Assembly: GCA_019057475.1 (NCBI GenBank)
Contig: DXJO01000008.1
Span: forward strand, 73,943-137,942
Source of the DNA: Candidatus Thorarchaeota archaeon
Lineage (GTDB): Archaea; Asgardarchaeota; Thorarchaeia; Thorarchaeales; Thorarchaeaceae
Reading direction: 5' to 3'
Length of the DNA: 64,000 nucleotides
The first letter of the stretch is position 1. The number at the start of each line of letters is the position of its first letter. The notes below the pieces were generated by a model. The model was not told the origin of the DNA. It saw nothing but the letters and a program-made list of their open reading frames with translations, and searched no databases. A program made the position numbers and the translations under genes. This document shows positions 20,408 through 44,639 of this stretch, in pieces.

Positions 20408-21265
20408 TCAGGAATTCGCCAGTTCATCCATTGCTCCGGTTCGATACCCTCTAGCGTCGATAGCAACATAGGTGAATCCAACGGAGATTGCCAACTCGTT
20501 TAGCTCGTCGAGTTTGTTGGTGTCGAAGAGTTTGTCACGCTCGTCAGAACCTACTTCTATTCGCACAAGATCACCGTGGAATCGAGCTCGGATTGTACGG
20601 ACTTCGAATATTCGTCTGACTGCTTGTTCAATCGTATCTACCATGGTGACATATTTCTTTGTGATCTGCACTCCGTAAGGAAATCTGGTTGCTAAGCATG
20701 CCATGGAGGGTCTGTCTGCAACAGATAGTCCGTTCTCTCTTGCGTACTTGCGAATCTCATCCTTCGTCATGCCTGCATCCAAAAAGGGTGATGTCACTCC
20801 CATCTCTCTGAGAGCACGTTCGCCAGGTCTGTGGCCTTTCAGATCACTTGCGCTTGTGCCTTCAACGACCATGTCGAAACCTCGTTTGCTAGCGTATTCA
20901 ATCCAGACCTTAGCCAGCTTCTTCTTGCAGAGGTAACATCGGTCGCGGGGGTTCTTTGTGAACTCATCATCGTCCAGATGATCCACATGGATTATCTCAG
21001 ACCCAATTTTCAGCTCGTCTGCGACTTTCTTTGCATTTACAAGTTCAGACTGGGGTGACAGAATACTATCGATGGTGAGTAACACAACTCTGTCTGCATG
21101 CTTCTTAGCGAGGAGTGCAAGGACAGAGCTATCAACACCGCCGCTAAACGCAACTAATACTCGTTGTCCATTCAGAAGGCGCGCGATTTTGCTAAACTTA
21201 TCCTTGGAGTGTTCATTCATCGAAGTCTTGCCTGCTTTCGAGCTGATGGTCTTAAGGATTGGCAA
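20408..21265 (-). CDS. PP-loop ATP pyrophosphatase (TIGR00268/LarE-like sulfur transferase family)
   Basis: SGGVDSS PP-loop, RDRCYLCK, and ARFHGDLVRIEV, which is typical of LarE-like enzymes. Confidence 0.7.
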   Translation of the reverse strand: MPILKTISSKAGKTSMNEHSKDKFSKIARLLNGQRVLVAFSGGVDSSVLALLAKKHADRVVLLTIDSILSPQSELVNAKKVADELKIGSEIIHVDHLDDDEFTKNPRDRCYLCKKKLAKVWIEYASKRGFDMVVEGTSASDLKGHRPGERALREMGVTSPFLDAGMTKDEIRKYARENGLSVADRPSMACLATRFPYGVQITKKYVTMVDTIEQAVRRIFEVRTIRARFHGDLVRIEVGSDERDKLFDTNKLDELNELAISVGFTYVAIDARGYRTGAMDELANS

Positions 21266-21300: not shown

Positions 21301-23148
21301 TTACTTTCCTTTATTTGTTGACATGTAGGGGTCCTCATCAAAATCCATGTCGGTGTAACCCTGGTCCTCCAGAAGATGTTCCACGGATTCCGCTCCCTTT
21401 GTCCATTTTACCTGCCACTGACCCTCTTCAGTCAGCCTGAGCTCCACATCAGGCAGGTCTCCCAGAAGGTTGTGATCCATCTCAATAACATCTTGGTACG
21501 CGCCTGTCAGGGCCAGAACGAAGTAGGAGTCCTGGACATTCTCCAAGACACCAACAGGGATTCCTTCCTCCATCCCTTCCTTTGGCAAGGTTAGCGGCCG
21601 GTCATCTCTTGTGAACAGCGGCACATCAGTGACCTTTCTGTGGAACTGAGATATCTCACCGTCTGAGTCACAGGTAATATCTACCAAGCGCACAGTCGTT
21701 TCGGGTCTTACATGCAGGTCGCGAATAGGCACAATTGGGAAGTGTTGATGGACTAGAACATAGTCTCCTACACTGTTGAACACACTGAAGTTGCCTATCA
21801 CGATGTGCTCCGGATACCAGAAGCTTCTGGAAACAGAGCCCGATTTTAGTTGATTGAGTCCGTGCTTCTTCAGTTTCCTCCGAACTGCTGCTTCAAGCAC
21901 GCCCACCAACATCTCGCTCTCGAAGATTCCTTTTAGGGTGCCAGAGGTTTCAGTGAGTTCCTTATGGAATTTATTCCACGATTTCGCCAACTCATCAGCA
22001 GAACTTGATTTCTCAATCCGATCAAGCCATTGGCGCTCAGCCCTTTCCATTGCTTTGCTTTCGTAATCCTTCCGGGGAGGAAATACTGACCTCAACTCAA
22101 GTGCTCTGACCAACACGAGTGAGCCCAAGGCAGTAATTCCCCTTCCTGACTCTATGAGAATGGTCGGCGAAATGCCTTGGTGCTGGCTCTCCTTGAGGAT
22201 ATCCTTGATTCCCTGAACAAGTGATAGGGCGTACAACTCCATCAGGTCTGAGCGATGGGCGCTAGTGTAGTCAATTGGTAACCCTCCTCCGAAGTCGATA
22301 GTATCCAAGCCAGAGAGGCCCCTGTCGCGGAGCTCCAGGAATACCCGTGTCATGAACTGTGCAAAGCCCCGAAAGCTCGCCACGTTGATTATCTGTGAAC
22401 CAGCGTGGCCAAGGATAGTGGAAACAGAGGTCAAGAACCCAGTTTCCTTGAACAGCTCAATAACATCGAAGATATCATGGATGCTCATCCCAAACTTGGA
22501 GTCGCGCCCGGTCGAGTGTGACCAATGGCCTTCAAGAGTAAGATATGGTTTGAGCCGCAATACTAAATCAGTCATCTGTGGATTGAAGCGCTCGACAATC
22601 ATCCTAGCCTCATGCAAAGATTCCACTGACACTGACATTGTGTAGCCATTATCAATGCACTTCTGAATCATATCCAAATACTCTGGGTCTTTGGCACCAT
22701 TGCAGACGATGCGTCTGTGCTTTTCATTTTTGGTCACGTTACAAACTAGAATCAACTCGGACTTGGTCCCAACCTCAAGGCCGTATTCTGTGTCTGCAGC
22801 CAGCACGGGCAACACGAAGTCCCGCCGCTGGTTTACCTTCACTGGATATACTGCATTGAATTTGCCTTCATAGTTCAATTGCTTGATGGCTGAAGCGAAT
22901 GCAGTCTTTAGCTTCTTGACTTGAGAAATAATCAACTGAGGAAGTCGAAGAGTGAACGAGGATGTATAGCCAATGGTTTCTTCGGCATCTGATTTGGTTC
23001 GTCTGACAATTTCTGAGAAGGTTATGGTTGCCTCACCCATTCTTATGCAGAGCTCACCTTCTTCTGTAATGTCAAGAAAGTGCAAATCATTGCGGTCCAA
23101 CCCGTAGACCAGTTTCGATTGACCGATAGTCCACTCTTCTTCTTTCAC
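21301..23148 (-). CDS. speA: Biosynthetic arginine decarboxylase (PLP-dependent, SpeA type)
   Basis: 615 aa. AVYPVKVNQ carries the PLP lysine context. IDFGGGLPIDY. Overall SpeA architecture. Confidence 0.8.
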   Translation of the reverse strand: MKEEEWTIGQSKLVYGLDRNDLHFLDITEEGELCIRMGEATITFSEIVRRTKSDAEETIGYTSSFTLRLPQLIISQVKKLKTAFASAIKQLNYEGKFNAVYPVKVNQRRDFVLPVLAADTEYGLEVGTKSELILVCNVTKNEKHRRIVCNGAKDPEYLDMIQKCIDNGYTMSVSVESLHEARMIVERFNPQMTDLVLRLKPYLTLEGHWSHSTGRDSKFGMSIHDIFDVIELFKETGFLTSVSTILGHAGSQIINVASFRGFAQFMTRVFLELRDRGLSGLDTIDFGGGLPIDYTSAHRSDLMELYALSLVQGIKDILKESQHQGISPTILIESGRGITALGSLVLVRALELRSVFPPRKDYESKAMERAERQWLDRIEKSSSADELAKSWNKFHKELTETSGTLKGIFESEMLVGVLEAAVRRKLKKHGLNQLKSGSVSRSFWYPEHIVIGNFSVFNSVGDYVLVHQHFPIVPIRDLHVRPETTVRLVDITCDSDGEISQFHRKVTDVPLFTRDDRPLTLPKEGMEEGIPVGVLENVQDSYFVLALTGAYQDVIEMDHNLLGDLPDVELRLTEEGQWQVKWTKGAESVEHLLEDQGYTDMDFDEDPYMSTNKGK

Positions 23149-23176: not shown

Positions 23177-24649
23177 TCAGGACTCGTCTTCTTTGATGGA
23201 ATCAAGCATCCCTTGAAAAGCTCTAGCTAACTCACCGATCTCGTCGTCCTGTGAGATGTAGGTTGTATCAACCCTAAGGTCAATCGAGTCCAGACTTTCC
23301 TCCTTTATCATAGCTTCGACGTTTCTGGTTGCCAGATCCATGAGGTATTGCAGAGGTTTCGTAATCTGATTGGAGATCACGATGGCCACAGCTCCAGCTA
23401 CTATGATTCCGCCCACGGTGATAGCCAGGATGAATGCCAATGCCTGCTGATTGGCCGCATCGATTCTCTCTTCCAACGGTGGAATCGCGCTCAGCACTTC
23501 ATCTTCAGGAACAACGATAACAACGATGTAGTTGCCTCTCTCCACGCTAGCGTACACTAGAAGATGGGTTTCACCATTTCTGGTGTAAGTTAGATTCCCC
23601 ACTCCTCCTGATTGAACGCTTCTAATCTGCAGAAGCTGTGTGTCACTTAGAGCTTCAGTCGTATCGTTATTTATCTCCACTTCAGTCAATGGCATGAGAA
23701 TCTCGTTCTCTACCCAAAACTCTGCGTAATCCTCTGGGGATAGTTCCGGATGGGCGATGATTCCTCCTCCGGCCTTTTCGATGAGCGATGCATAGCCGCT
23801 CTCCAGGACCTGCACATCTAGAATCTTCTCGTTGATGTCTGCAACTGAGATGTCACCTGAGATGACGCCTATGATGGATCCATTGTCGTATCGCACGACT
23901 CTGCCGATGGATATGAGAAGAACCCCCTCGAATTCATCAAAGTACGGTTCGACATATGTTATGTCGGGACTTCCCGAGAGGATATCTATGTACCATGGCT
24001 GTGAGCTGGCAGAGTATGGGTGAATCGACCGATCAAGGATACTGCCTGGGTAGTTAATGAAGAGGTCATTCGTGAATGCTAGGTAGAGCCATCGAAACTC
24101 AGGCATCTGCTGATGGATGCCCTGGAATATGAAGTCGAGATTAGAGGCTCGTCCAAGCTTCTCTGCATTCGCATCGGCAGTGTCATTATAGTTCACTTCG
24201 TCTGCGGATGGATGATACCAACTGCTGTAATTCCAAGAAACGCTGAGCCCGTAGCCATCTTCGTAATGGGTATCATTGGGTTGTGGTCCTCCGGAGTTCT
24301 CAAAGAAGTAGTCATAGTATGCTTCTCGAGGTTGTACTGTGGAGTCGTCGCTGAATATCTGTTCGCACTCTTCAGCCATTGCTCGAATCATCCCCTCCGC
24401 GCTAGCCAGCTTCTGGTTGATCACAAGTGCGTTCTTCTCTGCAGTGAGTTCCATGTTTCTGATTGCTTGTTCTCGCAAAGCCGTAGCGCTGAGCGAAGTA
24501 GTGTCATCCCCGATGTATGTCATGAATTGCTGGGACACCACACCAGTGACAGCTAGCGATATCACTGAGATCAACACTAGTGAGATCACCACGCTCCTTC
24601 GGAAACTCCCTCTCTTCTTCGTAACGTTCTTTTTCTGTGCCATTTTCAT
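23177..24649 (-). CDS. Membrane sensor: TM - extracellular dCache-like domain - TM - HAMP, no output domain
   Basis: N-terminal TM helix. The Cache core reads RYDNGSIIGVISGDISV..LESGYASLIEKAGGGIIAHPE. A second TM follows. HAMP (PLQYLMDL...DEIGELARAFQGM), and the protein ends there. Confidence 0.65.
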   Translation of the reverse strand: MKMAQKKNVTKKRGSFRRSVVISLVLISVISLAVTGVVSQQFMTYIGDDTTSLSATALREQAIRNMELTAEKNALVINQKLASAEGMIRAMAEECEQIFSDDSTVQPREAYYDYFFENSGGPQPNDTHYEDGYGLSVSWNYSSWYHPSADEVNYNDTADANAEKLGRASNLDFIFQGIHQQMPEFRWLYLAFTNDLFINYPGSILDRSIHPYSASSQPWYIDILSGSPDITYVEPYFDEFEGVLLISIGRVVRYDNGSIIGVISGDISVADINEKILDVQVLESGYASLIEKAGGGIIAHPELSPEDYAEFWVENEILMPLTEVEINNDTTEALSDTQLLQIRSVQSGGVGNLTYTRNGETHLLVYASVERGNYIVVIVVPEDEVLSAIPPLEERIDAANQQALAFILAITVGGIIVAGAVAIVISNQITKPLQYLMDLATRNVEAMIKEESLDSIDLRVDTTYISQDDEIGELARAFQGMLDSIKEDES

Positions 24650-24658
24650 ATCGCCCCC

Positions 24659-27526
24659 TCAGTAATCAACCGTGGTTCCTCCCACTTCCATCTGAGCCAT
24701 AAGCACTCCAATCTCCTGGAACGCTCGCTCTATGTCACTACGTACGTCGCGACTATCGACCACAGAGAGGTATTGTCCCTGTGGGATTCCCAAGCACACG
24801 GATTCTAGTAGCTCTTCGATTGTCAACCGCTGTCCGGTCTTGGGGGACCTGATTCTCTTCTTCGTGTCCACTGGTGCCCTGAGCTCCCCGCCCACACCTA
24901 TTATGATTAAGTTCACATCTAGGTGGTTGTTCCTGACGTATCCCTCTATTGTGGATTTCCTGGTCTTCTTCAGACGCTGTTGAGGCGTGAATACCCCTTG
25001 GAGAGCATCAAGTGAGAAGTGCTTTGAGCTGTTGTCCTGGCCGTCAGTAAGGGCAATCACCCATCTATGTTCGCTCGACTCCACTCTGTCAAGCTCGACA
25101 AGTGCCTTTCCAAGAGCATCGTAGAATGCTGTCGCGTTGTTGGGATGCCTTAGAGCATCAAGTGTTCGATAGATTGGACTATCACGGGGGTTCTTGTATT
25201 CACCCTTCACGGTGAGTGGCAAAAGCTCGCGGAATCCAGAATTGAACACGATTATGCTCACTTCATCCTGCGGGTTAACCTGACTGTCAAGGATCTCCTT
25301 GGCTCCTGCAACAGCAGCCTTGATTCTATCCTGTGCTCGCATACTGCCTGAATAATCGATGACGAAGATCACACTCTTCTTGAACATAATTGACCGTCTA
25401 AGCTTCTCAGCTTGCCGTCTCAGCTCGTGGCTTGGCTTATTCAGGTGGTCCAAGACCTCAGCAAGTGCATTCATGCTATGGACTGCCAACCAGTACTCCT
25501 CGACACTCTGAGCGAGTTGGATGGATGCATCAAACTCCTTTTGGGCTTTTTTCCATTTGCTTTGGTCTGCAAAGAGATCGCCCATGTGGTAGTGTATGTA
25601 AGCTAAAGCTCGCTCGTAGTTCTCTGCCTTGGCAATTTTCTGAGCCTCTTTAAATCGTGAGAGAGCCTGACTGTGGCGTCCTGCCTTGAACAAGTTGAGA
25701 CCCATTGCATCGAAACGTCTAGCGAGTCCTCGATTGTTGCCGAGGGTACGGTCAATCGCTTCTGCATCTTCCAAGTACTTCATCGCCGCACCATAATCGC
25801 CGATGTCCATCTTAACAAGCGCCATGTTATGATACACCGATGCGATTCGGATCATTGCATCCGATTCGTCAGTGGTATCTGACTTGGCTCGCTTGAGCAT
25901 CCGATTGGCGATGGTTTGAGCCCGACCGTAGTGGTCTAGCGCATTGCCAGTGTCCCCTCGCTGTCTGAACACGTTGCCAATGTTCAGACTCATTGTCTGT
26001 TCCCCAATCTCAATCTTGAGCCTTCTACTGATCTCCAATAGGTTCTGGTAATTGGCTAGTGCTCGGTTCAAGTCGCCTCTGATGAATGCCTGGTTACCGA
26101 ATCTACAGGCTTCCTGGAAACTAAGTAGGGCGTCTACAGTTGTTCCTATCTCCTCGAACATCGCCCCTGTCACCGTGACTCCGCGTGTGAAGTCCTGTTT
26201 CGACATCTTCTCAACCATTTTGGTCATTTCATTGATTGGCTTGACCACGGCTCGTCCTCTTCTGTAGGATATGGCACCGACAACCACTGCCACAACAGCA
26301 AGGACTCCTCCCAGTGCTATCGTCAACAGAAGGGTTTCTTGCATCACAACGTTCAGTATATTGTTGGCAGGTTCAATGACCTCGTCAGCAGGAACCACGA
26401 TTGCAAGTGCGAAACCTGTGTTTGTCACATTGATGTGTGTGAGTATCCATGACTCTCCATCCTTTGTGAACTCAGTACTCCCTTGTCCTGCAGTGAAAGC
26501 ACTGCTAAGCACATCTTGGAAGTCTATTGCTTCCTGGCTTGCTTCAGAGTCAAATTCCAACTCGAAGATGCTTGGCTGATCCTCAGCAACAGTGTCCAAG
26601 TCTGGATGGGCCAAGACGGTACCGTCAGATGTAAGCAGGTACGCATATCCGCTATCAAGGACCTCTATATTCAGAACTTCAGATCGAATTGTTTCAACCG
26701 ACACATCTGCAGAAACAACGCCAATCAGTGTGCCATTATCATACCTAACAGGTCTACCAAATGACAACACCCAGTCGGTGCTTGGATCGAAGTTCAGTGT
26801 GAATGTAATTTCCTCGTTCATGACTCCCTCGACATTGGTATACCAAGTCTCGACGTTAGGGTCATAGTCGTTAGCTGGGTCAAGCCATACTCCGGGGTCC
26901 TCCTGCTGAAAGTACCAGAGATCATCATATGGGTAGTTCCTCATCAAATGCTGGTCGGATACTGCTGGGTCGAATCCCATGTACAGCCAGATGTAATCTG
27001 GATTCATCTTATGAAGTGCCCTGAATATGTTGACCATGTTTGAAGAGATATCTAGGGTATTGGCCGTCTTGGGAGAGAGGTCGAATGGATCACTGTTGCG
27101 ATAGTGCGGTCGCGGCATGTAGTAACAATCGACCGTAAATGATATTCTGTCCGAACCATACTCCTCCCAGAGCTCCTCCATGTCAGGCACAACAAAACCT
27201 GATTGGAGGAATTCGAGCTGCCAATCCCAGTAATAGCTGTGCCGAGTTGTGGCATTGATTTTCCCATTGAAGAGGTCCTCACAATACCTCTCCATCATGT
27301 AGACACCGTCCATGTAGCTCTGGGTTCTCTCCTCAATGTAGAGTCTAGTGTCATTTGATATTCGAAGGAGATTCGCTAGTTCCTCCTCGTGAAGTGCATT
27401 AGCAGCATCGCCAGCATTGTCTTGTGACACATTAAAGATAGTTGTCGCTGATAACGCTGAGATAATGAGAATCGGTATCAACGATACCGTCACGAACGTT
27501 ACAATGATTCGTCTGCTTATCTCCAT
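24659..27526 (-). CDS. Multidomain membrane protein: Cache-like sensor - TM - HAMP - TPR repeats - von Willebrand factor A domain
   Basis: Cache core RYDNGTLIGVVSADVSV..LDSGYAYLLTSDGTVLAHPD. Second TM. HAMP-like FEEIGTTVDALLSFQ. TPR-like helical repeats. vWA with the MIDAS motif VIFVIDYSGSM ... ALTDGQDN. Confidence 0.7.
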   Translation of the reverse strand: MEISRRIIVTFVTVSLIPILIISALSATTIFNVSQDNAGDAANALHEEELANLLRISNDTRLYIEERTQSYMDGVYMMERYCEDLFNGKINATTRHSYYWDWQLEFLQSGFVVPDMEELWEEYGSDRISFTVDCYYMPRPHYRNSDPFDLSPKTANTLDISSNMVNIFRALHKMNPDYIWLYMGFDPAVSDQHLMRNYPYDDLWYFQQEDPGVWLDPANDYDPNVETWYTNVEGVMNEEITFTLNFDPSTDWVLSFGRPVRYDNGTLIGVVSADVSVETIRSEVLNIEVLDSGYAYLLTSDGTVLAHPDLDTVAEDQPSIFELEFDSEASQEAIDFQDVLSSAFTAGQGSTEFTKDGESWILTHINVTNTGFALAIVVPADEVIEPANNILNVVMQETLLLTIALGGVLAVVAVVVGAISYRRGRAVVKPINEMTKMVEKMSKQDFTRGVTVTGAMFEEIGTTVDALLSFQEACRFGNQAFIRGDLNRALANYQNLLEISRRLKIEIGEQTMSLNIGNVFRQRGDTGNALDHYGRAQTIANRMLKRAKSDTTDESDAMIRIASVYHNMALVKMDIGDYGAAMKYLEDAEAIDRTLGNNRGLARRFDAMGLNLFKAGRHSQALSRFKEAQKIAKAENYERALAYIHYHMGDLFADQSKWKKAQKEFDASIQLAQSVEEYWLAVHSMNALAEVLDHLNKPSHELRRQAEKLRRSIMFKKSVIFVIDYSGSMRAQDRIKAAVAGAKEILDSQVNPQDEVSIIVFNSGFRELLPLTVKGEYKNPRDSPIYRTLDALRHPNNATAFYDALGKALVELDRVESSEHRWVIALTDGQDNSSKHFSLDALQGVFTPQQRLKKTRKSTIEGYVRNNHLDVNLIIIGVGGELRAPVDTKKRIRSPKTGQRLTIEELLESVCLGIPQGQYLSVVDSRDVRSDIERAFQEIGVLMAQMEVGGTTVDY

Positions 27527-27593
27527 CTATTTTCCTCCGAGCTATGATAATGCGTGCCTTTTTTTTCTGATTCCATTATGTCCCCTCCTAGTT

Positions 27594-29135
27594 CTAAACT
27601 GCCCAATGTTTCAGTTCCTTGTTTAGTCCAACCACGAATTCTCTGATGTCTTGACTCTTATCAAGAATAAACGAGTCGCCAATCAACTCGCCTTCAACCA
27701 AACCTTCTCCGAGAAGAATTAGCAGCGTTCTACGAAGAATCTGCCTGTCCACTCCGGTTTCCAGTTCAAGCATCTCGATATCTACGGTATTTTCGCCCCC
27801 GAGCACTTTGGCTACGGAAGTTCGCAACTTGTTTGGTGTAATCGGTTTCGCTTTCTTGAGCAACTTCAATTTGGTTCGTCCTGTCCGGACAAAGACATTG
27901 TCATCGAAGTGTCCCCTGATGATCTTCTTCTTTATCATCGTTTGAAGGCTTCGTCTAAGATTGTAAGCAGCTGGTTGTGCAAGCGTTCTCCTCAAGATTC
28001 GGTCCAATTCCTTCAGGGGAATTCGAGTGTGCTTTGATGTTATCGATTCAAGACTCTCTTGAAGAAACTCCTCAATCGCGTATTCATCGAGTATTTCCAG
28101 AGTCGCGCCGCAGGAATCACAGGTTGCTGCTTCTGGTGATGCATTTGCTCCGCAGTTACCACACTTGATTGCTCGACGGTAGAGAATCGTTTTCGTGGAT
28201 TCTATCTGTTGCAGTGTGATTCTTTCAGTCTTGGAAACCTCGGTTGTTTGTTCAACTTCCCAGAAACCTAGTCTTCGGTCACCCGTGCTCACCACTAAAT
28301 ACGCAATGTCGGACACATCATCCGGGGTGCCTGTTGCAATTGCCTTGGGTGTTGCCGAGAGCTCAATCCTGGCAACCTCGCGACCATCGAGGTCCCAGAC
28401 TCTAAGATGAGTCGAATGATTGCCAGTCACAAACAGCCTTCTTTCTCCAAAGGCTAGAACTCCGAACACAGTCACAGTCTCTCCAAGCTGAAACCGCTTC
28501 AGCTGGTATCCAGCTGACGTGAGTATCGTGATTGTGCCATTTCTCTCAGCGATGACCACTTCGAGCTGGGAGTCGTTGGTGATATCTTCCAACCAGACAT
28601 CGCAGAGCGGGCTATCCATAGTCCTACTAAACAGTGCCATCTTGTCATCGTTCCAGAGGATTACTCTTCGATTTTGAAGCGCAACCACAACTTCAGCTGC
28701 AGAATCCCCATCGACGTCTCTGGAGTCACAAGCAAGAATTGGGCTCTCTAGGTCAATGTTCCACATTGGTTGACCCCTACAGGTAACGACGAGAACCTTT
28801 TTCCCGACGCCCCCGACAAGCGCATCATCCCCTTCTCCTTCCACATCTGCAACAGCAATACATCTGACCTTACTACTCCATTTTCTGGAAGCCCTGAGTG
28901 ATCCACGAGTGTCGTAGACCCTTAATCGGTCTCCATAGTCGAGAGAGAAGACTTGTGACCTTGCATCTGGTCTTTGTCTCACATACAAATTGTACGCGCC
29001 AGCAGAAGTAGCTACCTTCGCAACCGAGTGAATCCGCACTAAGCCAAGCACCATCCTTGATGTTCTCGTGAAACGATATAAGTGTGCACTCCGAAAAGAC
29101 CACCTTGTAATGAGTCCTTCCCCTGAAGACTGCAC
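27594..29135 (-). CDS. FG-GAP-like beta-propeller repeat protein with C4 zinc ribbon and C-terminal helical (possible winged-helix) domain
   Basis: Repeated D-x-D/E-G-D-xxAE-VVV motifs (ADVEGEGDDALV, SRDVDGDSAAEVVV, ...). CGNCGANASPEAATCDSCG. A basic helical C-terminus. No signal peptide seen. The start is uncertain. Confidence 0.5.
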   Translation of the reverse strand: MQSSGEGLITRWSFRSAHLYRFTRTSRMVLGLVRIHSVAKVATSAGAYNLYVRQRPDARSQVFSLDYGDRLRVYDTRGSLRASRKWSSKVRCIAVADVEGEGDDALVGGVGKKVLVVTCRGQPMWNIDLESPILACDSRDVDGDSAAEVVVALQNRRVILWNDDKMALFSRTMDSPLCDVWLEDITNDSQLEVVIAERNGTITILTSAGYQLKRFQLGETVTVFGVLAFGERRLFVTGNHSTHLRVWDLDGREVARIELSATPKAIATGTPDDVSDIAYLVVSTGDRRLGFWEVEQTTEVSKTERITLQQIESTKTILYRRAIKCGNCGANASPEAATCDSCGATLEILDEYAIEEFLQESLESITSKHTRIPLKELDRILRRTLAQPAAYNLRRSLQTMIKKKIIRGHFDDNVFVRTGRTKLKLLKKAKPITPNKLRTSVAKVLGGENTVDIEMLELETGVDRQILRRTLLILLGEGLVEGELIGDSFILDKSQDIREFVVGLNKELKHWAV

Positions 29136-30198
29136 CGTTGGTTTCGTATGGAGTGCCGAGTTTGAGAGATTCGACTTTGGTCGCAGACATCCAATTCGTG
29201 TCGGCCGCTTCCAGATGGCACATGATCTCGTTAGCGATGCGGGGTTCCTTGAACATCCTTCGGTTTGCCTAATTGATCCGATTCCACTATCAGATGAGAT
29301 GCTTGTCCGGATTCATTCCGAGGAGTACATCAAACGAGTGAAGCAGATATCACTCACCGGACAAGGAGAGATTGACATCGACACGCCTGGATTCAAGGGA
29401 ATCTATGAGTACGGTCAGCTGAGCTGTGGAGCCACATTGACAGGAGTCCGCGAAGTGGCCTCTGGGCGTCTCAATCACTTCCTCTCTCCAACGGGAGGGT
29501 TCCATCATGCGAAGTATGATTCCGGGGGCGGATTCTGCATCTTCAATGATGTCGCAGCTGCAGTGCTTGCACTGAAGGACATGGGTTTCGAAAGGGTTCT
29601 TGTTGCAGATTTCGACGTTCATCACGGGAACGGGACACAGACGTACTTCTATGAAGACCCCGGCGTTATGGTTATTTCATTCCATGAAGACCCTGAGTGG
29701 ATGTATCCTCACGATGGTCATATCGGGGATATTGGGGCTGGCAAGGGGCGCGGGTACAACATCAATATGCACTTCCCGATGGATTCAGGTGACAGTGTCT
29801 ACAGATATGCCTTTGATGAGCTGGTACCCTCTCTAGTTGAATTCTATCAGCCAGAGTTCATTCTGTTTCTTCCAGGATTCGATGCGCACTACAACGATCC
29901 GTTGGCACACATGAAGCTTACTACCAACATGATTCGGTATGTTGCTGAGTACATACACAATGCAGCTCATACTTGGAGCGGGGGTCAACTTGGCGTTCTT
30001 TCGGCTGGGGGCTACGACGCTACTGCATTCGGATGGGGAATCGGGACCATCCTCTCAGTTCTCACAGGACTCAAGTACTCACCACCAAAACAAACACCTC
30101 CGTTTGATGATGATGAGGAAACTTGGGATATCGTTCGTTCCAACGTACGGGAGGTAAAGGAAATGGTCTTCCCCGCGCTAGGGGCAGACGTAATGTGA
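29110..30198 (+). CDS. Histone deacetylase family protein (AcuC/acetylpolyamine amidohydrolase-like)
   Basis: ADFDVHHGNGTQ, HPIRV and the GGGFCIFNDVA motifs of the arginase/deacetylase fold. Confidence 0.8.
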   Translation: MSPSPEDCTVGFVWSAEFERFDFGRRHPIRVGRFQMAHDLVSDAGFLEHPSVCLIDPIPLSDEMLVRIHSEEYIKRVKQISLTGQGEIDIDTPGFKGIYEYGQLSCGATLTGVREVASGRLNHFLSPTGGFHHAKYDSGGGFCIFNDVAAAVLALKDMGFERVLVADFDVHHGNGTQTYFYEDPGVMVISFHEDPEWMYPHDGHIGDIGAGKGRGYNINMHFPMDSGDSVYRYAFDELVPSLVEFYQPEFILFLPGFDAHYNDPLAHMKLTTNMIRYVAEYIHNAAHTWSGGQLGVLSAGGYDATAFGWGIGTILSVLTGLKYSPPKQTPPFDDDEETWDIVRSNVREVKEMVFPALGADVM

Positions 30199-39600: not shown

Positions 39601-40611
39601 TTGATCAACAAGATGACTGAGATATCTGACAAATTGGAGCGGCAGAGAAAGGACGATCCAAAGCTGCTTATCAAGATGCAGGTGGCCGCTCAGGGACAAG
39701 ATCCTCGTTTCTTCATAGTTTCTCAAATCCATCGAAGCACTCAAGATCTGAAGCTTCTGGGTCTTGAACAAGGAGATGCCTTCCATGGCACTCGCGTTTC
39801 AGGCTGTCCGCTCCTCTCACCCAGCAAATCGCCAGTACTGTTTGCTGGACCTGCCGCCTTCAATGGAAATTTTCCCCAGAAAGATGGCGTTGTAATCACG
39901 TTTGATAGAGATGAACCACAAGAACGAATTCGCGAATCACTTGTCAATCTTACAGAACATCCGGACCTTTCTGAGATACCCATCATAGCTCTCAGTGTTG
40001 ATTATGGTCAGGGCCATGCTCAAGCAATAGGTCACTCCTTTAATCGCAATAGAGATGTTGAGGAGATGTTCGTATCGAGGTGTGTTAGACCCGAAAGACT
40101 CGACGAGAGCGTCCTAGTGTTGTTATGCTCAGACTCGCGTGTTCATCCTCCTTTAACTCCCGTCGGAATACCCTACGCGATTCAAACTCTTGGAGCCTAC
40201 GTTTCCAAGTACACTGGTGCAAATGACGAAACTATGCAGCTGAATGATTTCTTCTCAGACTGGCTTTCCACAGACGCTAGTGAAAAACGAATTCTGATAG
40301 TTGAACATGGGGGATTCACCCAGAATGAACCGCCATGTGGTGCAGGGCAGGCATCCCTGAATCCAGACCAGGTGAAAGGAGAGTTTCTGCGCCCTGTGAT
40401 TGAGCTACTCCGCCAAGAAGCACTTCGATTCGAAGATGGCATTCCCAAGACAGTCGAAGATAGAGTTCTTGCAATCGGCCAGGCCACTGAATACAATCTA
40501 CGAAACTACCCTGCGATAGCCAGAGCGCAGGACGAAGGAGTTAGCATGGAATCGCTGTTTCAGATAGTGACAATGGACACTGTTACAGGCAAGCTCCGTG
40601 AGATTGGATAA
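39601..40611 (+). CDS. Hypothetical protein with beta-carbonic-anhydrase-like motifs in C-terminal half
   Basis: CSDSRVHP matches the beta-CA signature C-[SA]-D-S-R-[LIVM]-x-[AP]. A downstream H...C-G lies in LIVEHGGFTQNEPPCGAG. The last 12 codons are duplicated at 43920-43958. Confidence 0.4.
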   Translation: MINKMTEISDKLERQRKDDPKLLIKMQVAAQGQDPRFFIVSQIHRSTQDLKLLGLEQGDAFHGTRVSGCPLLSPSKSPVLFAGPAAFNGNFPQKDGVVITFDRDEPQERIRESLVNLTEHPDLSEIPIIALSVDYGQGHAQAIGHSFNRNRDVEEMFVSRCVRPERLDESVLVLLCSDSRVHPPLTPVGIPYAIQTLGAYVSKYTGANDETMQLNDFFSDWLSTDASEKRILIVEHGGFTQNEPPCGAGQASLNPDQVKGEFLRPVIELLRQEALRFEDGIPKTVEDRVLAIGQATEYNLRNYPAIARAQDEGVSMESLFQIVTMDTVTGKLREIG

Positions 40612-40690
40612 GGGCTTGTTGACATCATCACGCCTTCAAAGGTGACATACATACTATCATACAATTGCAGGTCCAGAATGATACTGGCAT
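40581..40690. repeat. Left copy of ~110-bp imperfect direct repeat flanking a 3.2-kb insertion
   Basis: gttacaggcaagctccgtgagattggataaggg.ttgttgacatcatcacgccttcaa...catacatactatcatacaattgcaggtccagaatga pairs with 43909-44031 at about 90% identity. Confidence 0.65.
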
Positions 40691-40789
40691 TCCCAAAGAT
40701 TGGCCTCCTTCTAAGGTTACTACTTAATAGGAAATCAGATTCCTGAATTTGAATGCGGGAGGTTATTGATAGTGTCAACAAAGGATAAG

Positions 40790-43700
40790 ATGCGCCCACA
40801 ATTTTCACATAATGATGCTGTCAGACTAGCCAAGACGATATATGGTATTGATTGTGCTGCAAGGGAATTGCCAAGTGAACGTGATAGAAACTTTCTGCTC
40901 ATTACTAAAACCAATGAGAAATACGTGATGAAAATTTCCGCAACCTCTGAATCCCGAGATGTCATTGATTGTCAAAATGCCGCGTTGCAGCATATCCAAG
41001 AGGTTGATGAATCAATAGCGATTCCAAGAATAATTCATTCTCTTAATGGAGAATTTGTTCCGCTTATTTCGACCGAAGTGGGACATGAGCATTTCATAAG
41101 ACTATTGACATATCTCCCGGGACGAGTATTCGCGAAAATTAATCCGCATACTATGAAACTGATGGAAGATTTCGGAAAATTCATGGGGTCCCTTTCTAGG
41201 GCATTAGAGAGCTTTTCGCACCCTGCTGCTAATCGCGACTTCTACTGGGATTTGAAAAACTCACCTCAAATGATTGTTGAATATAGAGAATTGATTAGTG
41301 ACAAGAAGAAAAGGGAAATTTCAGACTATTTCTACAATCTATTCGATCAAGAAGTAGTACCCCATATCCGAGAATTAAGGTCAAGTATAGTGCATAATGA
41401 CGCAAACGATTACAATGTGGTCGTTGATACAAATTGGACTAATGATTCGAGAAAACTCGGAATTTTTGATTTTGGTGACATGTTGTTTACTTGCACAATA
41501 TTTGAGCTAGCAATTGCTACTGCGTACGCAATATTAGACCATGATGATCCAGTAATGGCTGCAGCTGCAATGATTAAGGGGTATCACTCAGTATTTCCAC
41601 TAACAGAACTAGAAATGAAAGTTCTATTTCCAGCTATATGTGCAAGATTACTATCTAGTGTTTGTGTATCAGCATACCAGCAGTTTCTGGAACCAGAGAA
41701 TGAATACTTGGCGATAACTGAAACTCCCGCATGGCGGACTCTCAGCAGACTTAGAAAAATGCATCCTAAACACGTTTGGTACATCTTCAGAGATGCATGT
41801 GGATTTCCGCCAAACCCAGAAAACCCGAGAATAGTAAAATGGATAACCGATAATGAAAGTCACTTTGGCAATGTTCTGACTAAAAGCATGGAAGAATACA
41901 AGTCCGTAGTAATTGACCTAAGTGTCGGTAGTCTAGATTTCGAGTATCCTGAGGATGTCGTGGTTTTTAAAAGATTTTCTAGAATAATACAGAATAAGAT
42001 GGACGACCACAAGGCAGAGATTGCTTTTGGTCGATACGATGAAAGTCGTCTTATCTACACCGGTGACCAATATTCAGAGAATGAAGATCTCGTACAGAAT
42101 TCAAGAGTAACCCATCTTGGTATTGATATCTTTTCACCACCTAAAACTCCCATTTTCGCACCTCTAGATGGTATCGTTCATTCACTGAAAAACAATGACA
42201 TTCCATTAGATAATGGACCAACTATTATCCTTGAACATAACCCCACTTCAGATACTAAGTTCTATACACTCTATGGACATCTAAGTCTGGACTCAATTAA
42301 CGGACTAATAATTGGACAGAAAATAAGTAAAGGAGATGAAATTGCGCGCATAGGGGATTACCCTAAGAATGGTGGATGGCCTCCACATTTACATTTTCAA
42401 ATAATCACAGATATGTTGGACGTGGAGGGGAATTACAATGGAGCTTGTGGGGTAAATCAACGTGATGTTTGGCGAAGCATTTGTCCTGATCCAAATTTGA
42501 TTCTAAAGATTCCAGAAGATAAGTTTCCAGACCCTCTCCTAACTAAACAAGAGATATTACAGACTAGACAGGAGTATATTGGACCAAATCTGAGTGTTTC
42601 CTATAAAGAGCCATTGAAGATTGTAAGAGGATACATGCAGTACTTGTATGATGAAGATGGAAAGAGATACCTTGACGCAGTGAATAATGTTCCCCACGTC
42701 GGTCATTCAAATCCAAATGTGGTTAAAGCTCTACAGAAACAAGCAGCTGCACTTTATACAAATACTAGATACTTGCATGATAACCTTGTTAGGTATGCGG
42801 AGAAACTTATTGAAAAAACGCCAGAACCACTTAGTGTCTGTTATTTCGTGAATAGTGGAAGTGAAGCAAACGAACTTGCATTGAGATTAGCTAGAACACA
42901 TACTCAGCGAGATGGAATTATCATTGTGGATGATGCGTATCATGGAAACACCGATACCTTAGTCGATCTTAGTCCATACAAACACAAAGGACCCGGAGGA
43001 CGTGAACCACCCACACATGTAGTCTCAGTTTTCAAAGCAGATCCATTCAGAGGGAAGTTTGGTTCTGATGACTCCAAGGCCGGAGAGAAATACGCTTCTT
43101 ATATCAAAGATTTTGCTATACCAAGGTTGGAAGAAAGCGGTCATCCTGTAGCTGCATTCATTTGCGAACCCGTTATGAGTTGTGCAGGACAAATCGTATT
43201 TCCAAAGGGATACCTAAAGAAAGCCTATGAGCACGTAAGAAATGCGGGAGGCGTGTGCATAGCAGATGAAGTGCAGATTGGATTCGGTAGAGTTGGAAGT
43301 CATTTCTGGGGGTTTGAAACACAAGGAGCCATACCGGATATTGTAACTATGGGTAAACCAATAGGAAACGGACATCCATTAGCAGCTGTTGTTACAACCC
43401 CAGAGATAGCAAAATCATTCGACAATGGAATGGAATTCTTCAGCACTACGGGTGGAAACACTGTTTCATGTGCAGTTGGACTAGCTGTTCTTAATGAGAT
43501 CGAATCAAAGAACTTGCAGGAGAATGCATTCTCTGTTGGAAAACATATGAAAGAAAAACTGCTCGATCTGAAAAAGAAATACCCTCTCATTGGAGATGTA
43601 AGAGGTCTCGGACTGTTTCTTGGTGTTGAACTAGTAAAAGACCAGGAAGAATTGTTTGAACCAGCAGCAGAAGAAGCAACATATATTGTCAATAGGATGA

Positions 43701-43855
43701 AAGAACTTGGAGTATTAATTAGTGTGGATGGATATCTTCGTAATGTCCTCAAGATCAAACCCCCAATCATATTCTCCAATGAGGATGTAGATTATTTTAT
43801 TGAACGTCTGGAAACCGTTCTTAACGAAGATTTTCCGAGCGGTATTATAGAATAA
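40790..43855 (+). CDS. Tri-domain fusion: aminoglycoside/hydroxylysine-kinase-like phosphotransferase (APH) - M23 peptidase - class III aminotransferase (AGXT2-like, possible phospho-lyase)
   Basis: APH-type N-terminus (HNDANDYNVVVD, FDFGD). M23 (HLGIDIF...DGIV...YTLYGHLS...GGWPPHLHFQI). Class-III aminotransferase (DDAYHGNTD, ICEPVMSCAGQI, DEVQIGFGRVGSHFWGFE, TMGKPIGNGHPLAAV with the PLP Lys). Markedly AT-richer than its flanks. Confidence 0.8.
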   Translation: MRPQFSHNDAVRLAKTIYGIDCAARELPSERDRNFLLITKTNEKYVMKISATSESRDVIDCQNAALQHIQEVDESIAIPRIIHSLNGEFVPLISTEVGHEHFIRLLTYLPGRVFAKINPHTMKLMEDFGKFMGSLSRALESFSHPAANRDFYWDLKNSPQMIVEYRELISDKKKREISDYFYNLFDQEVVPHIRELRSSIVHNDANDYNVVVDTNWTNDSRKLGIFDFGDMLFTCTIFELAIATAYAILDHDDPVMAAAAMIKGYHSVFPLTELEMKVLFPAICARLLSSVCVSAYQQFLEPENEYLAITETPAWRTLSRLRKMHPKHVWYIFRDACGFPPNPENPRIVKWITDNESHFGNVLTKSMEEYKSVVIDLSVGSLDFEYPEDVVVFKRFSRIIQNKMDDHKAEIAFGRYDESRLIYTGDQYSENEDLVQNSRVTHLGIDIFSPPKTPIFAPLDGIVHSLKNNDIPLDNGPTIILEHNPTSDTKFYTLYGHLSLDSINGLIIGQKISKGDEIARIGDYPKNGGWPPHLHFQIITDMLDVEGNYNGACGVNQRDVWRSICPDPNLILKIPEDKFPDPLLTKQEILQTRQEYIGPNLSVSYKEPLKIVRGYMQYLYDEDGKRYLDAVNNVPHVGHSNPNVVKALQKQAAALYTNTRYLHDNLVRYAEKLIEKTPEPLSVCYFVNSGSEANELALRLARTHTQRDGIIIVDDAYHGNTDTLVDLSPYKHKGPGGREPPTHVVSVFKADPFRGKFGSDDSKAGEKYASYIKDFAIPRLEESGHPVAAFICEPVMSCAGQIVFPKGYLKKAYEHVRNAGGVCIADEVQIGFGRVGSHFWGFETQGAIPDIVTMGKPIGNGHPLAAVVTTPEIAKSFDNGMEFFSTTGGNTVSCAVGLAVLNEIESKNLQENAFSVGKHMKEKLLDLKKKYPLIGDVRGLGLFLGVELVKDQEELFEPAAEEATYIVNRMKELGVLISVDGYLRNVLKIKPPIIFSNEDVDYFIERLETVLNEDFPSGIIE

Positions 43856-43908
43856 GACGTAATACCAAGTCAATAGTTGAAATCCAAGAATTTGCAGGAT
43901 GCAATGGA

Positions 43909-44031
43909 TACAGTTACAGGCAAGCTCCGTGAGATTGGATAAGGGATTGTTGACATCATCACGCCTTCAAGACGCCTTCGAAGGTGATATACATGCTATC
44001 ATACATTTGCAGGTCCAGAATGAAGGAGTTT
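43909..44031. repeat. Right copy of direct repeat flanking the insertion
   Basis: Matches 40581-40690. It carries an extra internal gacgccttcgaa duplication. Confidence 0.65.
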
Positions 44032-44639
44032 AGTTTGAATATGGGTATCACGGGCACGCCTTCATGAAACTCGATATCCTCCACCATCCAAGTCACAATG
44101 ATTGGCACAAGAGAATAGGACCCGTTGGGTATGGGCTTGAGTTTTCGTGCGAGCCTGTTCATTTGATTCGCTAATTGGGCGGTTCTTTCCTTCTGCTTTT
44201 CCGCAGCGTGCGCAAGTGCCGAGGATTTCCCTGGTCTAATCCCCCACATCTTTGCATCTATGGACACGATAGTCTTTCCTCTCACGCCGACAACATCGAT
44301 TTCCATGCCCTTGATGATGCTGTTACCTCTTCTTCGGAAGCTCTCCACGCAACGGAATTCATTCTCTTCCAAGATTTCCGCAACAAATCCCTCAAAGTCT
44401 TTCCAAGTCAGCAGTTTAACAACCGTTTCGATGGCTGATCCAAGGGCAACCGCCTTGAAGGCGAGTGTGATACGGTTGCGCCTTGATACAATCCACGTGT
44501 CGTCTAATCCCCTGCTAGTCCCCAGGCTTTCAAGAACCCCTACCGTTCTTCTGTCCACAATCTCGAGAGCACTCGAATCCTTCGTATTCTTTAGGAGAAA
44601 CAGAATGCGGTCAAGGATGTTCTCGTCCATCTCACTCAT
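43959..44639 (-). CDS. Hypothetical PD-(D/E)xK (Mrr/restriction-endonuclease-like) protein
   Basis: EIDVVGVRGKTIVSIDAKMW fits D...(D/E)xK. Its C-terminal coding end is part of the duplicated repeat; the fragment ORF 40560..40808 repeats ILDLQ.YDSMY.TFEGV. Confidence 0.4.
   Translation of the reverse strand: MSEMDENILDRILFLLKNTKDSSALEIVDRRTVGVLESLGTSRGLDDTWIVSRRNRITLAFKAVALGSAIETVVKLLTWKDFEGFVAEILEENEFRCVESFRRRGNSIIKGMEIDVVGVRGKTIVSIDAKMWGIRPGKSSALAHAAEKQKERTAQLANQMNRLARKLKPIPNGSYSLVPIIVTWMVEDIEFHEGVPVIPIFKLNSFILDLQMYDSMYITFEGVLKA

Follow-up and report, generated by a model that had tools for sequence, protein, structure and literature searches.

The closest described relatives of the input side of the locus considered here are the dCache_1/HAMP receptors, among them PctA, McpU, TlpQ and Cache histidine kinases (3LIB), in which an extracellular dCache_1 domain is held between two transmembrane (TM) segments and followed by HAMP; in a census of archaeal signalling, dCache was almost confined to Methanomicrobia. 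We analysed a stretch of 64,000 nucleotides from Candidatus Thorarchaeota archaeon (GenBank assembly GCA_019057475.1, contig DXJO01000008.1, positions 73,943 to 137,942 of the forward strand; hereafter the window), which encodes on its minus strand two Cache proteins, g1 and g2, and a soluble propeller protein, g3, followed by a gene for a predicted arginine decarboxylase (ADC). We conclude that this is a real, conserved Asgard transmembrane receptor module whose input side is ordinary dCache/HAMP and whose output side is not. Both sensors have the TM-dCache_1-TM-HAMP plan of the described receptors and use the same Tyr/Trp/Tyr/Asp pocket positions, but the module has no methyl-accepting chemotaxis protein (MCP) signalling domain, kinase, cyclase or phosphatase: g1 has no output at all, and g2 instead carries tetratricopeptide repeats (TPR) and a von Willebrand factor A (vWA) domain, with a propeller-winged-helix protein as presumed dedicated partner. 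In the literature searched, neither the architecture nor the operon was found described; a sequence-only reading of the window had likewise not recognised it as a described form of prokaryotic signalling.

On the output side, the nearest archaeal precedent, by analogy, is ArnA-ArnB, which represses motility in Sulfolobus acidocaldarius and likewise pairs a cytoplasmic vWA domain bearing an intact MIDAS (metal ion-dependent adhesion site) with a C4 zinc-finger partner in a non-catalytic arrangement (PMC6509490). ArnA differs in having an FHA domain and in phosphorylation by eukaryotic-type protein kinases (ePKs), whereas the Asgard module has no kinase and no FHA domain was found in g3 or its neighbours; ArnB is a soluble protein of a beta-sandwich and a four-helix bundle, whereas here membrane receptor and vWA protein are one and the same. 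Membrane-anchored vWA proteins with TPR also occur in the BatA/BatB/BatC system of Bacteroides aerotolerance, and the solved sequences closest to the g2 vWA domain include BatB and a Bat membrane protein (E = 0.055-0.12), alongside a weak BatC match in the TPR. Bat operons, however, contain a MoxR AAA+ and a DUF58 gene, neither of which was found in any locus, and Bat proteins lack Cache/HAMP and a propeller partner. The only well-known chains that join a MIDAS vWA with dCache are the eukaryotic alpha2-delta and CACHD1, and CACHD1 (8s7c_A, VWFA and cache domain-containing protein 1) is a weak match of the g1 Cache domain (E = 0.0014); in those chains, in contrast, both domains are extracellular and HAMP and TPR are missing, whereas here the membrane parts Cache (outside) from vWA (inside), and no orthology is implied.

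The three co-oriented open reading frames (ORFs) lie exactly where the sequence-only reading had placed them, and its account of the sensors stands with one qualification. TM segment analysis gives g1 and g2 the same topology, TM1-extracellular Cache-TM2, and no TM or hydrophobic segment in g3. Both sensors exceed the Pfam gathering cut-off for dCache_1 (PF02743; 72.2 bits in g1 and 61.8 in g2, against 45), and the two proteins are paralogous over their sensor halves (28% identity, E = 4e-40). As had been read, g1 ends right after its HAMP domain (PF00672), with 4 residues left; the HAMP score is borderline (25.9 bits, cut-off 25), and its AS2 motif, DEIGxLxxAFxxM, is kept in all lineages. The last residues form a short acidic tail (KEDES, 23177-23194), with GEEE, EEESEE, DETEEEE and DDEEDEDF at the ends of orthologues. 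The tail, which can be written [KR]-E-[DE]-[DE]-x-COOH, is conserved from Thorarchaeota to Hodarchaeales, and 33 of 41 orthologues carry a net charge of -3 or below over the last 12 residues; L029 and L030 differ and end in S-[IF]-W-D.

For g2, the Cache domain, the paralogy to g1, the TPR, the vWA domain and its intact MIDAS are all borne out, and the qualification concerns its HAMP domain, which scores only 14 bits in the window protein. The segment nevertheless aligns in register with the g1 HAMP (hhalign, E = 0.025), and distant orthologues exceed the cut-off at the same position (29.3 bits in L057 and 35.1 in L058). A number of Asn and Arg residues in the TPR region do not vary between Thorarchaeota and Hodarchaeales. 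The vWA domain matches both VWA_2 (46.5 bits, cut-off 27) and VWA (27.6 bits, cut-off 23.8), and the residues corresponding to the MIDAS consensus of DxSxS plus Thr and Asp (PMC6509490), namely D724, S726, S728, T799 and D828, are invariant in 20/20 Thorarchaeota orthologues and in 8/8 cross-lineage sequences. We found 150 g2 orthologues of about 941-965 aa with identical architecture. Searches for HisKA/HATPase_c, MCPsignal, GGDEF/EAL, cyclase and PP2C domains returned none in g1, g2 or g3 at E <= 0.1, and NCBIfam kinase and MCP matches of the module proteins fall far below cut-off and are confined to TM/HAMP or TPR parts. The reading that no kinase, methyl-accepting or cyclase output is present is thus upheld, and signalling by protein-protein interaction, which it had suggested, is the natural one because none of the three proteins has an enzymatic output domain. 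Orthologues of g2 are annotated as 'Methyl-accepting chemotaxis protein McpC', 'tetratricopeptide repeat protein' or 'cache domain-containing protein'; the first of these names is wrong, since the MCP signalling domain is absent.

The third protein had been read as a soluble protein with integrin-alpha-like FG-GAP repeats, a C4 zinc ribbon and a basic helical C-terminus. It is soluble, and the ribbon is secure: its four Cys are invariant, and all 13 family members tested match Zn_ribbon_3, the best of them with E = 8.6e-6. An AlphaFold (AF2) model, built on 22 sequences with a predicted local distance difference test score (pLDDT) of 73.5, arranges the chain as a six-blade propeller, a disordered linker, the ribbon, two winged helices and a terminal helix, so that the 'basic helical C-terminus' is modelled as a tandem winged helix with a helix at its end. 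Of the FG-GAP assignment a part survives. DxDGD-type loops are present in three blades, and one of them (D113, D115, G116, D117, E121) is invariant as far as Hodarchaeales. Other blades carry WD-like dipeptides, the FG-GAP_3 match is below cut-off (22.5 vs 26.9 bits), the blades number six and not the seven of integrin alpha, and the fold matches of the model are WD40/NHL. Orthologues of g3 are annotated as 'WD40 repeat protein' or 'zinc ribbon domain-containing protein'.

These results bear on the integrin-like pairing of vWA and propeller that had been proposed. Integrin alpha/beta resembles the module in combining a MIDAS vWA with a DxDGD-loop propeller and in conformational, non-enzymatic signalling. 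The nearest solved sequences of the g2 vWA, however, are ITIH4, BatB, a Bat membrane protein and ITIH1, with no integrin among the matches of that PDB search, and the propeller is six-bladed and WD40/NHL-like; on the vWA sequence matches and propeller fold matches, we reject integrin homology. The integrin alpha-propeller/beta-I interface is, moreover, not made through the MIDAS. Midasin (Rea1) with Ytm1/WDR12 and Rsa4, in which a MIDAS binds WD40 proteins, is a better analogue for a MIDAS that captures a propeller protein, although that system is AAA+-driven, serves eukaryotic ribosome assembly and has no membrane receptor, its ligand-bearing domain is a ubiquitin-like (UBL) domain that g3 lacks, and the likeness shown is one of fold.

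The genes stay together across distant Asgard lineages. In 18 loci of the main Thorarchaeota lineage, taken from genome records and contig look-ups, g3, g2, g1 and the ADC gene follow one another between an HDAC-family gene and an M24 gene in the opposite orientation, usually with a LarE-like gene after the ADC gene, and the outer flanks vary. In a deep Thorarchaeota lineage (g3 38% identical), the four genes are contiguous, the start of the ADC gene overlaps the g1 stop, and every flanking gene is different. The same four genes, with unrelated flanks, recur in the Hodarchaeales locus L026, where g3 is 22% identical and has one winged helix and no zinc ribbon. Elsewhere the order changes: in L029 and L030, g2 and g1 lie between an ADC gene and a propeller gene that both read in the opposite direction; L057 has g2, g1 and propeller in that order; L028 has the three genes without ADC; and L058 has a HAMP-TPR-vWA protein that lacks Cache, its gene being separated from the following propeller gene by one of 146 aa. 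Among 55 loci, the vWA gene is accompanied by the propeller gene in 45, by g1 in 44 and by ADC in 34, most of the loci outside these counts being contigs that stop too early. Of the lineage arrangements with both flanks readable, only one lacks linkage of the HAMP-TPR-vWA/propeller pair, and the persistence of this pair even where, as in L058, the vWA protein has no Cache domain fits a partnership of the two proteins. Linkage through four gene orders and full turnover of the flanks is, in our view, strong evidence from comparative genomics that the three genes form the core of a functional unit; co-conservation of the neighbourhood, on which the sequence-only reading had staked its case, was found in Thorarchaeota, the deep lineage, Hodarchaeales and other contigs.

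The searches behind these comparisons differed in reach. Homologues of g3 and g2 in databases bear almost only Thorarchaeota names, and one public contig of a metagenome-assembled genome (MAG) shows 92-95% protein identity across the block. A word-indexed search with distant g3 relatives recovered the deep Thorarchaeota lineage only; the Hodarchaeales relatives came from direct contig look-ups and from an exhaustive profile search of 1.84 billion representatives, which yielded few full-propeller relatives, several of them named Hodarchaeales by NCBI. Three bacterial loci (L019-L021) returned by a scan of the genome collection with the g3 alignment, a Thorarchaeota-specific pattern that recovered 15 Thorarchaeota loci, were spurious and were ignored.

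Because NTP-dependent conflict systems often contain vWA, TPR and WD40/propeller domains (PMC7159879), the module might belong to a defence system, or its genes might have stayed together by inherited synteny without a functional link. Both are scarcely credible here. Inherited synteny does not account for linkage that survives four rearranged gene orders among unrelated flanks. As for defence, no locus contains a MoxR/AAA+ protein, a STAND NTPase or an effector domain, PADLOC returned only a generic TPR match, and across Thorarchaeota the orthologues are near single-copy, 57-67% identical and set in a fixed core-genome context, the opposite of patchy, fast-evolving defence islands. We rejected a defence system on the generic PADLOC match and the core-genome synteny.

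In this genome, the module is predicted to be a four-gene operon of g3, g2, g1 and the SpeA-type ADC gene, since the latter follows g1 after 28 nt, and most lineages likewise have four genes; the three-gene unit first delimited at 23177-29135 holds as a functional module and ends one gene short. The gaps are 67 nt between g3 and g2 and 9 nt between g2 and g1. Although the longest ORF of g3 spans 27594-29135, alignment with 21 orthologues makes the ATG at 29054 its probable start, for a product of 486 aa. Neither Rfam nor tRNA scanning of the window returned a match. The features are collected in Table 1.

Table 1. Genes and domains of the receptor module and its neighbours, in window coordinates.
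Feature	Position	Strand	Size and evidence
g1: TM-dCache_1-TM-HAMP protein without output domain	23177-24649	-	490 aa; Pfam, TM segments; paralogous to g2
g1 HAMP, residues 425-486	23192-23377	-	Pfam 25.9 bits, cut-off 25; borderline
g2: TM-dCache_1-TM-HAMP-like-TPR-vWA membrane protein	24659-27526	-	955 aa; Pfam, TM segments
g2 extracellular dCache_1; pocket Y221, E226, W228, Y229, F246, D274	26357-27424	-	Pfam 61.8 bits; pocket columns
g2 TM2 and HAMP-like juxtamembrane segment	26093-26344	-	Pfam HAMP 14 bits, E = 0.065
g2 cytoplasmic TPR region, about residues 477-700	25427-26098	-	TPR_12 70.9 bits; three stretches
g2 cytoplasmic vWA; MIDAS DYSGS at 25343-25357, plus T799 and D828	24662-25375	-	VWA_2 46.5 bits
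g3: soluble beta-propeller-zinc ribbon-tandem winged-helix protein	27594-29054	-	486 aa; AF2 model; no TM
g3 propeller, residues 1-270	28245-29054	-	24 strands, six blades; AF2 model
g3 C4 zinc ribbon (CGNCG...CDSCG)	28095-28166	-	four Cys invariant
g3 tandem winged helix: first 327-392, basic linker, second 407-466, C-terminal helix	27597-28076	-	predicted model
ADC, predicted: SpeA-type, pyridoxal phosphate (PLP) fold III; fourth operon gene	21301-23148	-	615 aa; 28 nt downstream of g1
LarE-family PP-loop ATPase; lineage-specific neighbour	20408-21265	-	TIGR00268 254 bits, cut-off 150
HDAC-family deacetylase; divergent, lineage-specific neighbour	29110-30198	+	Hist_deacetyl E = 1.2e-74; 55 bp from g3

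The C-terminal half of g3, which the sequence-only reading had held to be possibly DNA-binding, raises the question of whether the output is transcription. A separate model of this half is better than that of the whole chain (pLDDT 80; predicted template modelling score, pTM, 0.73). Profile searches of the C-terminus against the PDB gave nothing significant, the best matches being the eL40 zinc ribbon (E = 0.086) and then the SAMD1 and TFE winged helices (0.24-0.38), and the second winged helix does not reach the Pfam cut-off for PCI. In one alternative, g3 is a membrane-sequestered transcription factor, held by the TPR-vWA part of g2 and released upon ligand binding, that controls the operon, ADC and the divergent deacetylase gene; this is a narrower version of the scheme that we favour below. 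In the main Thorarchaeota lineage the helix at the recognition position of the first winged helix is basic (+2 to +4) and a K/R-rich linker (+1 to +7) comes next, the weak profile matches include the winged helices of TFE and SAMD1, and only 55 bp (29055-29109), carrying a single TATA-like element, GATATAAG, separate g3 from the HDAC-family gene. The same helix, however, is neutral or acidic elsewhere, ranging from +1 to -2 in deep-Thorarchaeota, Hodarchaeales and other versions; family-wide conservation is confined to hydrophobic core positions together with D351 and N365; sequence matches to DNA-binding winged helices are all non-significant (E >= 0.24); and the zinc ribbon is absent from several Hodarchaeales relatives. 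Because the basic helix is restricted to the main Thorarchaeota lineage, DNA binding is doubtful as a property of the g3 family, and we consider the transcription-factor alternative unlikely.

Around the module, the 55-bp region may act as a shared bidirectional promoter, and a similarly tight divergent spacing of about 64-69 bp occurs in L001 and L003. The HDAC-family gene is kept beside g3 only in the main Thorarchaeota lineage and is absent from the deep-Thorarchaeota and Hodarchaeales loci. The LarE-family gene is the fifth co-oriented gene, 35 nt downstream of the decarboxylase gene; it is present in most main-lineage loci and missing in L001, L005, L016 and the deep-Thorarchaeota and Hodarchaeales loci. 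Both neighbours are lineage-specific and not part of the core of the module. Within the propeller family, accessory modules are shuffled (L030, 12338-13666 on the minus strand; P0302, P0290, P0318, P0369 and P0374): zinc motifs stand between propeller and winged helix in Thorarchaeota, are absent in several Hodarchaeales proteins, and elsewhere take the form of a C-terminal double zinc finger after the winged helix, as in a Hodarchaeum-type protein, or of a C-terminal ribbon without a winged helix.

The pocket of the two sensors, which the sequence-only reading had passed over, gives an indication of their ligand. The dCache_1AA motif for amino acids comprises, in PctA numbering, Y121, R126, W128, Y129, Y144 and D173, where R126 holds the carboxylate of the ligand and its amino group is held by D173; in amine sensors R126 is lost and D173 and the aromatics are kept (PMC10589655). 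The dCache receptors McpU and TlpQ have acidic pockets in which agmatine, putrescine, cadaverine and spermidine are bound (PMC6234866). Mapped through Mlp24/PctA alignments, the six positions read Y-Q-W-Y-Y-D in g1 and Y-E-W-Y-F-D in g2. The equivalents of Y121, W128, Y129, Y144 and D173 are conserved in both sensors (with F at Y144 in the window g2), and the Arg of the dCache_1AA motif is replaced by Q217 in g1 and E226 in g2. Across all Thorarchaeota orthologues (about 40), g1 has E, D or Q here and g2 has E or Q, with R or K in none, and the two ADC-linked Hodarchaeales loci have D or E. Retention of the Asp and the aromatics, with Glu, Asp or Gln in place of the carboxylate-binding Arg, points to a cationic amine, and the adjacent arginine decarboxylase gene suggests amine sensing as well; the ligand is thus plausibly an amine, with agmatine, the ADC product, or a polyamine as the most plausible candidates. 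The best PDB sequence match of g1 is 3LIB, a sensor from M. mazei that has been discussed as an amine-motif domain. The dCache_1AM motif itself also includes an upstream insertion with an R103-D133 pair (PctD numbering); of its features, the two shared aromatics, the Asp and the loss of R126 were compared, and these fit.

A sensor of amino acids, for example of arginine as the ADC substrate, or of another non-amine ligand is an alternative, in which the pocket substitution leaves the ligand class unchanged. Five of the six dCache_1AA positions are kept, an acidic residue could bind the guanidinium group of arginine, and the L028 orthologues have a full or nearly full amino-acid motif, with the canonical Arg in both sensors (DARTRPWY in g1, placed by this motif and its spacing to the PY.D motif, and YDPRERPWY in g2), so that the ancestral module may have been an amino-acid sensor. 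Yet single mismatches in dCache motifs abolished binding (PMC10589655), and in the Thorarchaeota and ADC-linked Hodarchaeales sensors described above the carboxylate-binding position never holds Arg or Lys. We consider this alternative unlikely.

The decarboxylase gene adjoins the module in Thorarchaeota, deep-Thorarchaeota and Hodarchaeales loci alike. Its 615-aa product matches NF003763 over residues 2-604 (E = 1.6e-100, 337.5 bits; cut-off 369) and TIGR01273 (E = 2e-96, 323.9 bits against a cut-off of 624), and it keeps the PVKVN, HAGSQ, GGGL and CDS motifs, which have catalytic or active-site roles; on these grounds it is predicted to be SpeA-type. Agmatine is required in archaea for two ends, polyamines and the modification of tRNA-Ile with agmatidine. 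A literature search on the regulation of arginine decarboxylase in Asgard archaea found nothing.

Taken together, these observations suggest a general scheme, to which we assign a probability of about 0.45, somewhat short of even; we infer its mechanistic steps beyond architecture and linkage. A cationic amine, plausibly agmatine or a polyamine, would bind the extracellular Cache pockets of g1 and g2, which would work together, possibly as a heteromer, and the signal would be relayed through HAMP to the TPR-vWA platform of g2. Metal-dependent binding of g3 by this platform would then change, so that g3 is recruited to the membrane or released from it and, as an adaptor, carries the output; the physiological output would be tied to the production of agmatine or polyamines, and in Thorarchaeota the basic first winged helix and linker of g3 could bind nucleic acid. 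In described complexes, integrin-laminin and midasin-WDR12, a Glu or Asp of the partner completes MIDAS metal coordination (PMC6509490). By analogy, g3 and the C-terminus of g1 are candidate acidic ligands of the g2 MIDAS. The acidic g1 tail may dock there or on the TPR groove of g2, since by its sequence it could equally suit a carboxylate-clamp groove of the TPR.

Several observations weigh against this amine-sensing scheme. The HAMP segment through which g2 would relay the signal is below the Pfam cut-off in the window protein (14 vs 25 bits), and one g3 relative, P0246 in L027, is not linked to any Cache-vWA gene. On the ligand side, the amine assignment depends on one substituted position and the gene context, the association of acidic pockets with the presence of ADC, and of Arg with its absence, is drawn from a single ADC-less lineage, L028, and the R126 position is Lys in g1 of L029 and Tyr in g2 of L031. 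The ADC gene, furthermore, could be a co-transcribed housekeeping gene and not a regulated target. Among archaea the dCache_1AM motif is reported only from Halobacteriota (PMC10589655).

The composition of the module also invites comparison with eukaryotic membrane assemblies. Mixtures of propeller, alpha-solenoid and zinc finger recur in eukaryotic membrane-coat and GATOR-type complexes; the fold matches of g3 include the propellers of coatomer, IFT-A and BBS; SNAP and PCI match below threshold; and small GTPase genes lie near four loci outside the main Thorarchaeota lineage. A structural or trafficking scaffold, coat-like or adhesion-like, in which the Cache domains serve as extracellular binding modules and not in signalling, is nonetheless very unlikely: the propeller matches are generic, Cache with HAMP is a dedicated pair for signal input and transmission, the pocket residues are conserved in the manner of a small-molecule site, and the operon is linked to a metabolic enzyme. 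Proximity to GTPase genes does not exceed chance in GTPase-rich Asgard genomes by our estimate (roughly p = 0.2), and because of that richness it may simply be chance. More remote still, and extremely improbable in our judgement, is a nutrient-sensing pathway in which amino-acid or amine signals pass through the TPR-vWA protein and the propeller adaptor to Rag/Arf-type GTPases, as a forerunner or analogue of GATOR/KICSTOR-Rag signalling.

The individual cases are as follows. In L027 (7122-10945), the unlinked paralogue with a propeller and two winged helices lies between a Ras/Rab-like GTPase gene and a gene with a precomputed SMCR8_C label; this label was not reproduced in our own Pfam search and was set aside. 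In L057 (5199-7793), a 515-aa GTPase that scores on Gtr1/RagA (57.8 bits) is encoded next but one to the module, and Arf/Rag-like genes are found within a few kb in L028 (3590-4132) and L022 (18986-19897). One Hodarchaeales propeller protein with a terminal double zinc finger, and the amino-acid-type pockets of L028, hint toward a GATOR-like reading.

Apart from the module, the window contains a stretch at about 40000-44000 with a GC content of 0.41-0.42, compared with about 0.49 elsewhere, which may have been horizontally acquired. It encodes on the plus strand (40766-43855) a 1029-aa fusion of an APH-type phosphotransferase, Peptidase_M23 and a class-III aminotransferase; the flanking ORFs at 39601-40611 and 43959-44639 have no Pfam match.

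Our findings correct the names under which these proteins stand in databases, 'methyl-accepting chemotaxis protein McpC', 'tetratricopeptide repeat protein' and 'WD40 repeat protein'. In almost all known transmembrane sensing of prokaryotes, the chain closes with an enzyme or with a methyl-accepting domain, whereas the conserved Cache/HAMP receptor described here has as its only output a TPR-vWA(MIDAS) platform with a presumed dedicated propeller-winged-helix partner. Scaffold-based receptor signalling is typical of eukaryotes, and the module occurs in Thorarchaeota and in Hodarchaeales, the latter ranked at present with the archaea most closely related to eukaryotes. Linkage to arginine decarboxylase, together with the altered pocket, offers a testable hypothesis for the physiology of these organisms, in which the sensing of extracellular agmatine or polyamines would be coupled to the production of agmatine.

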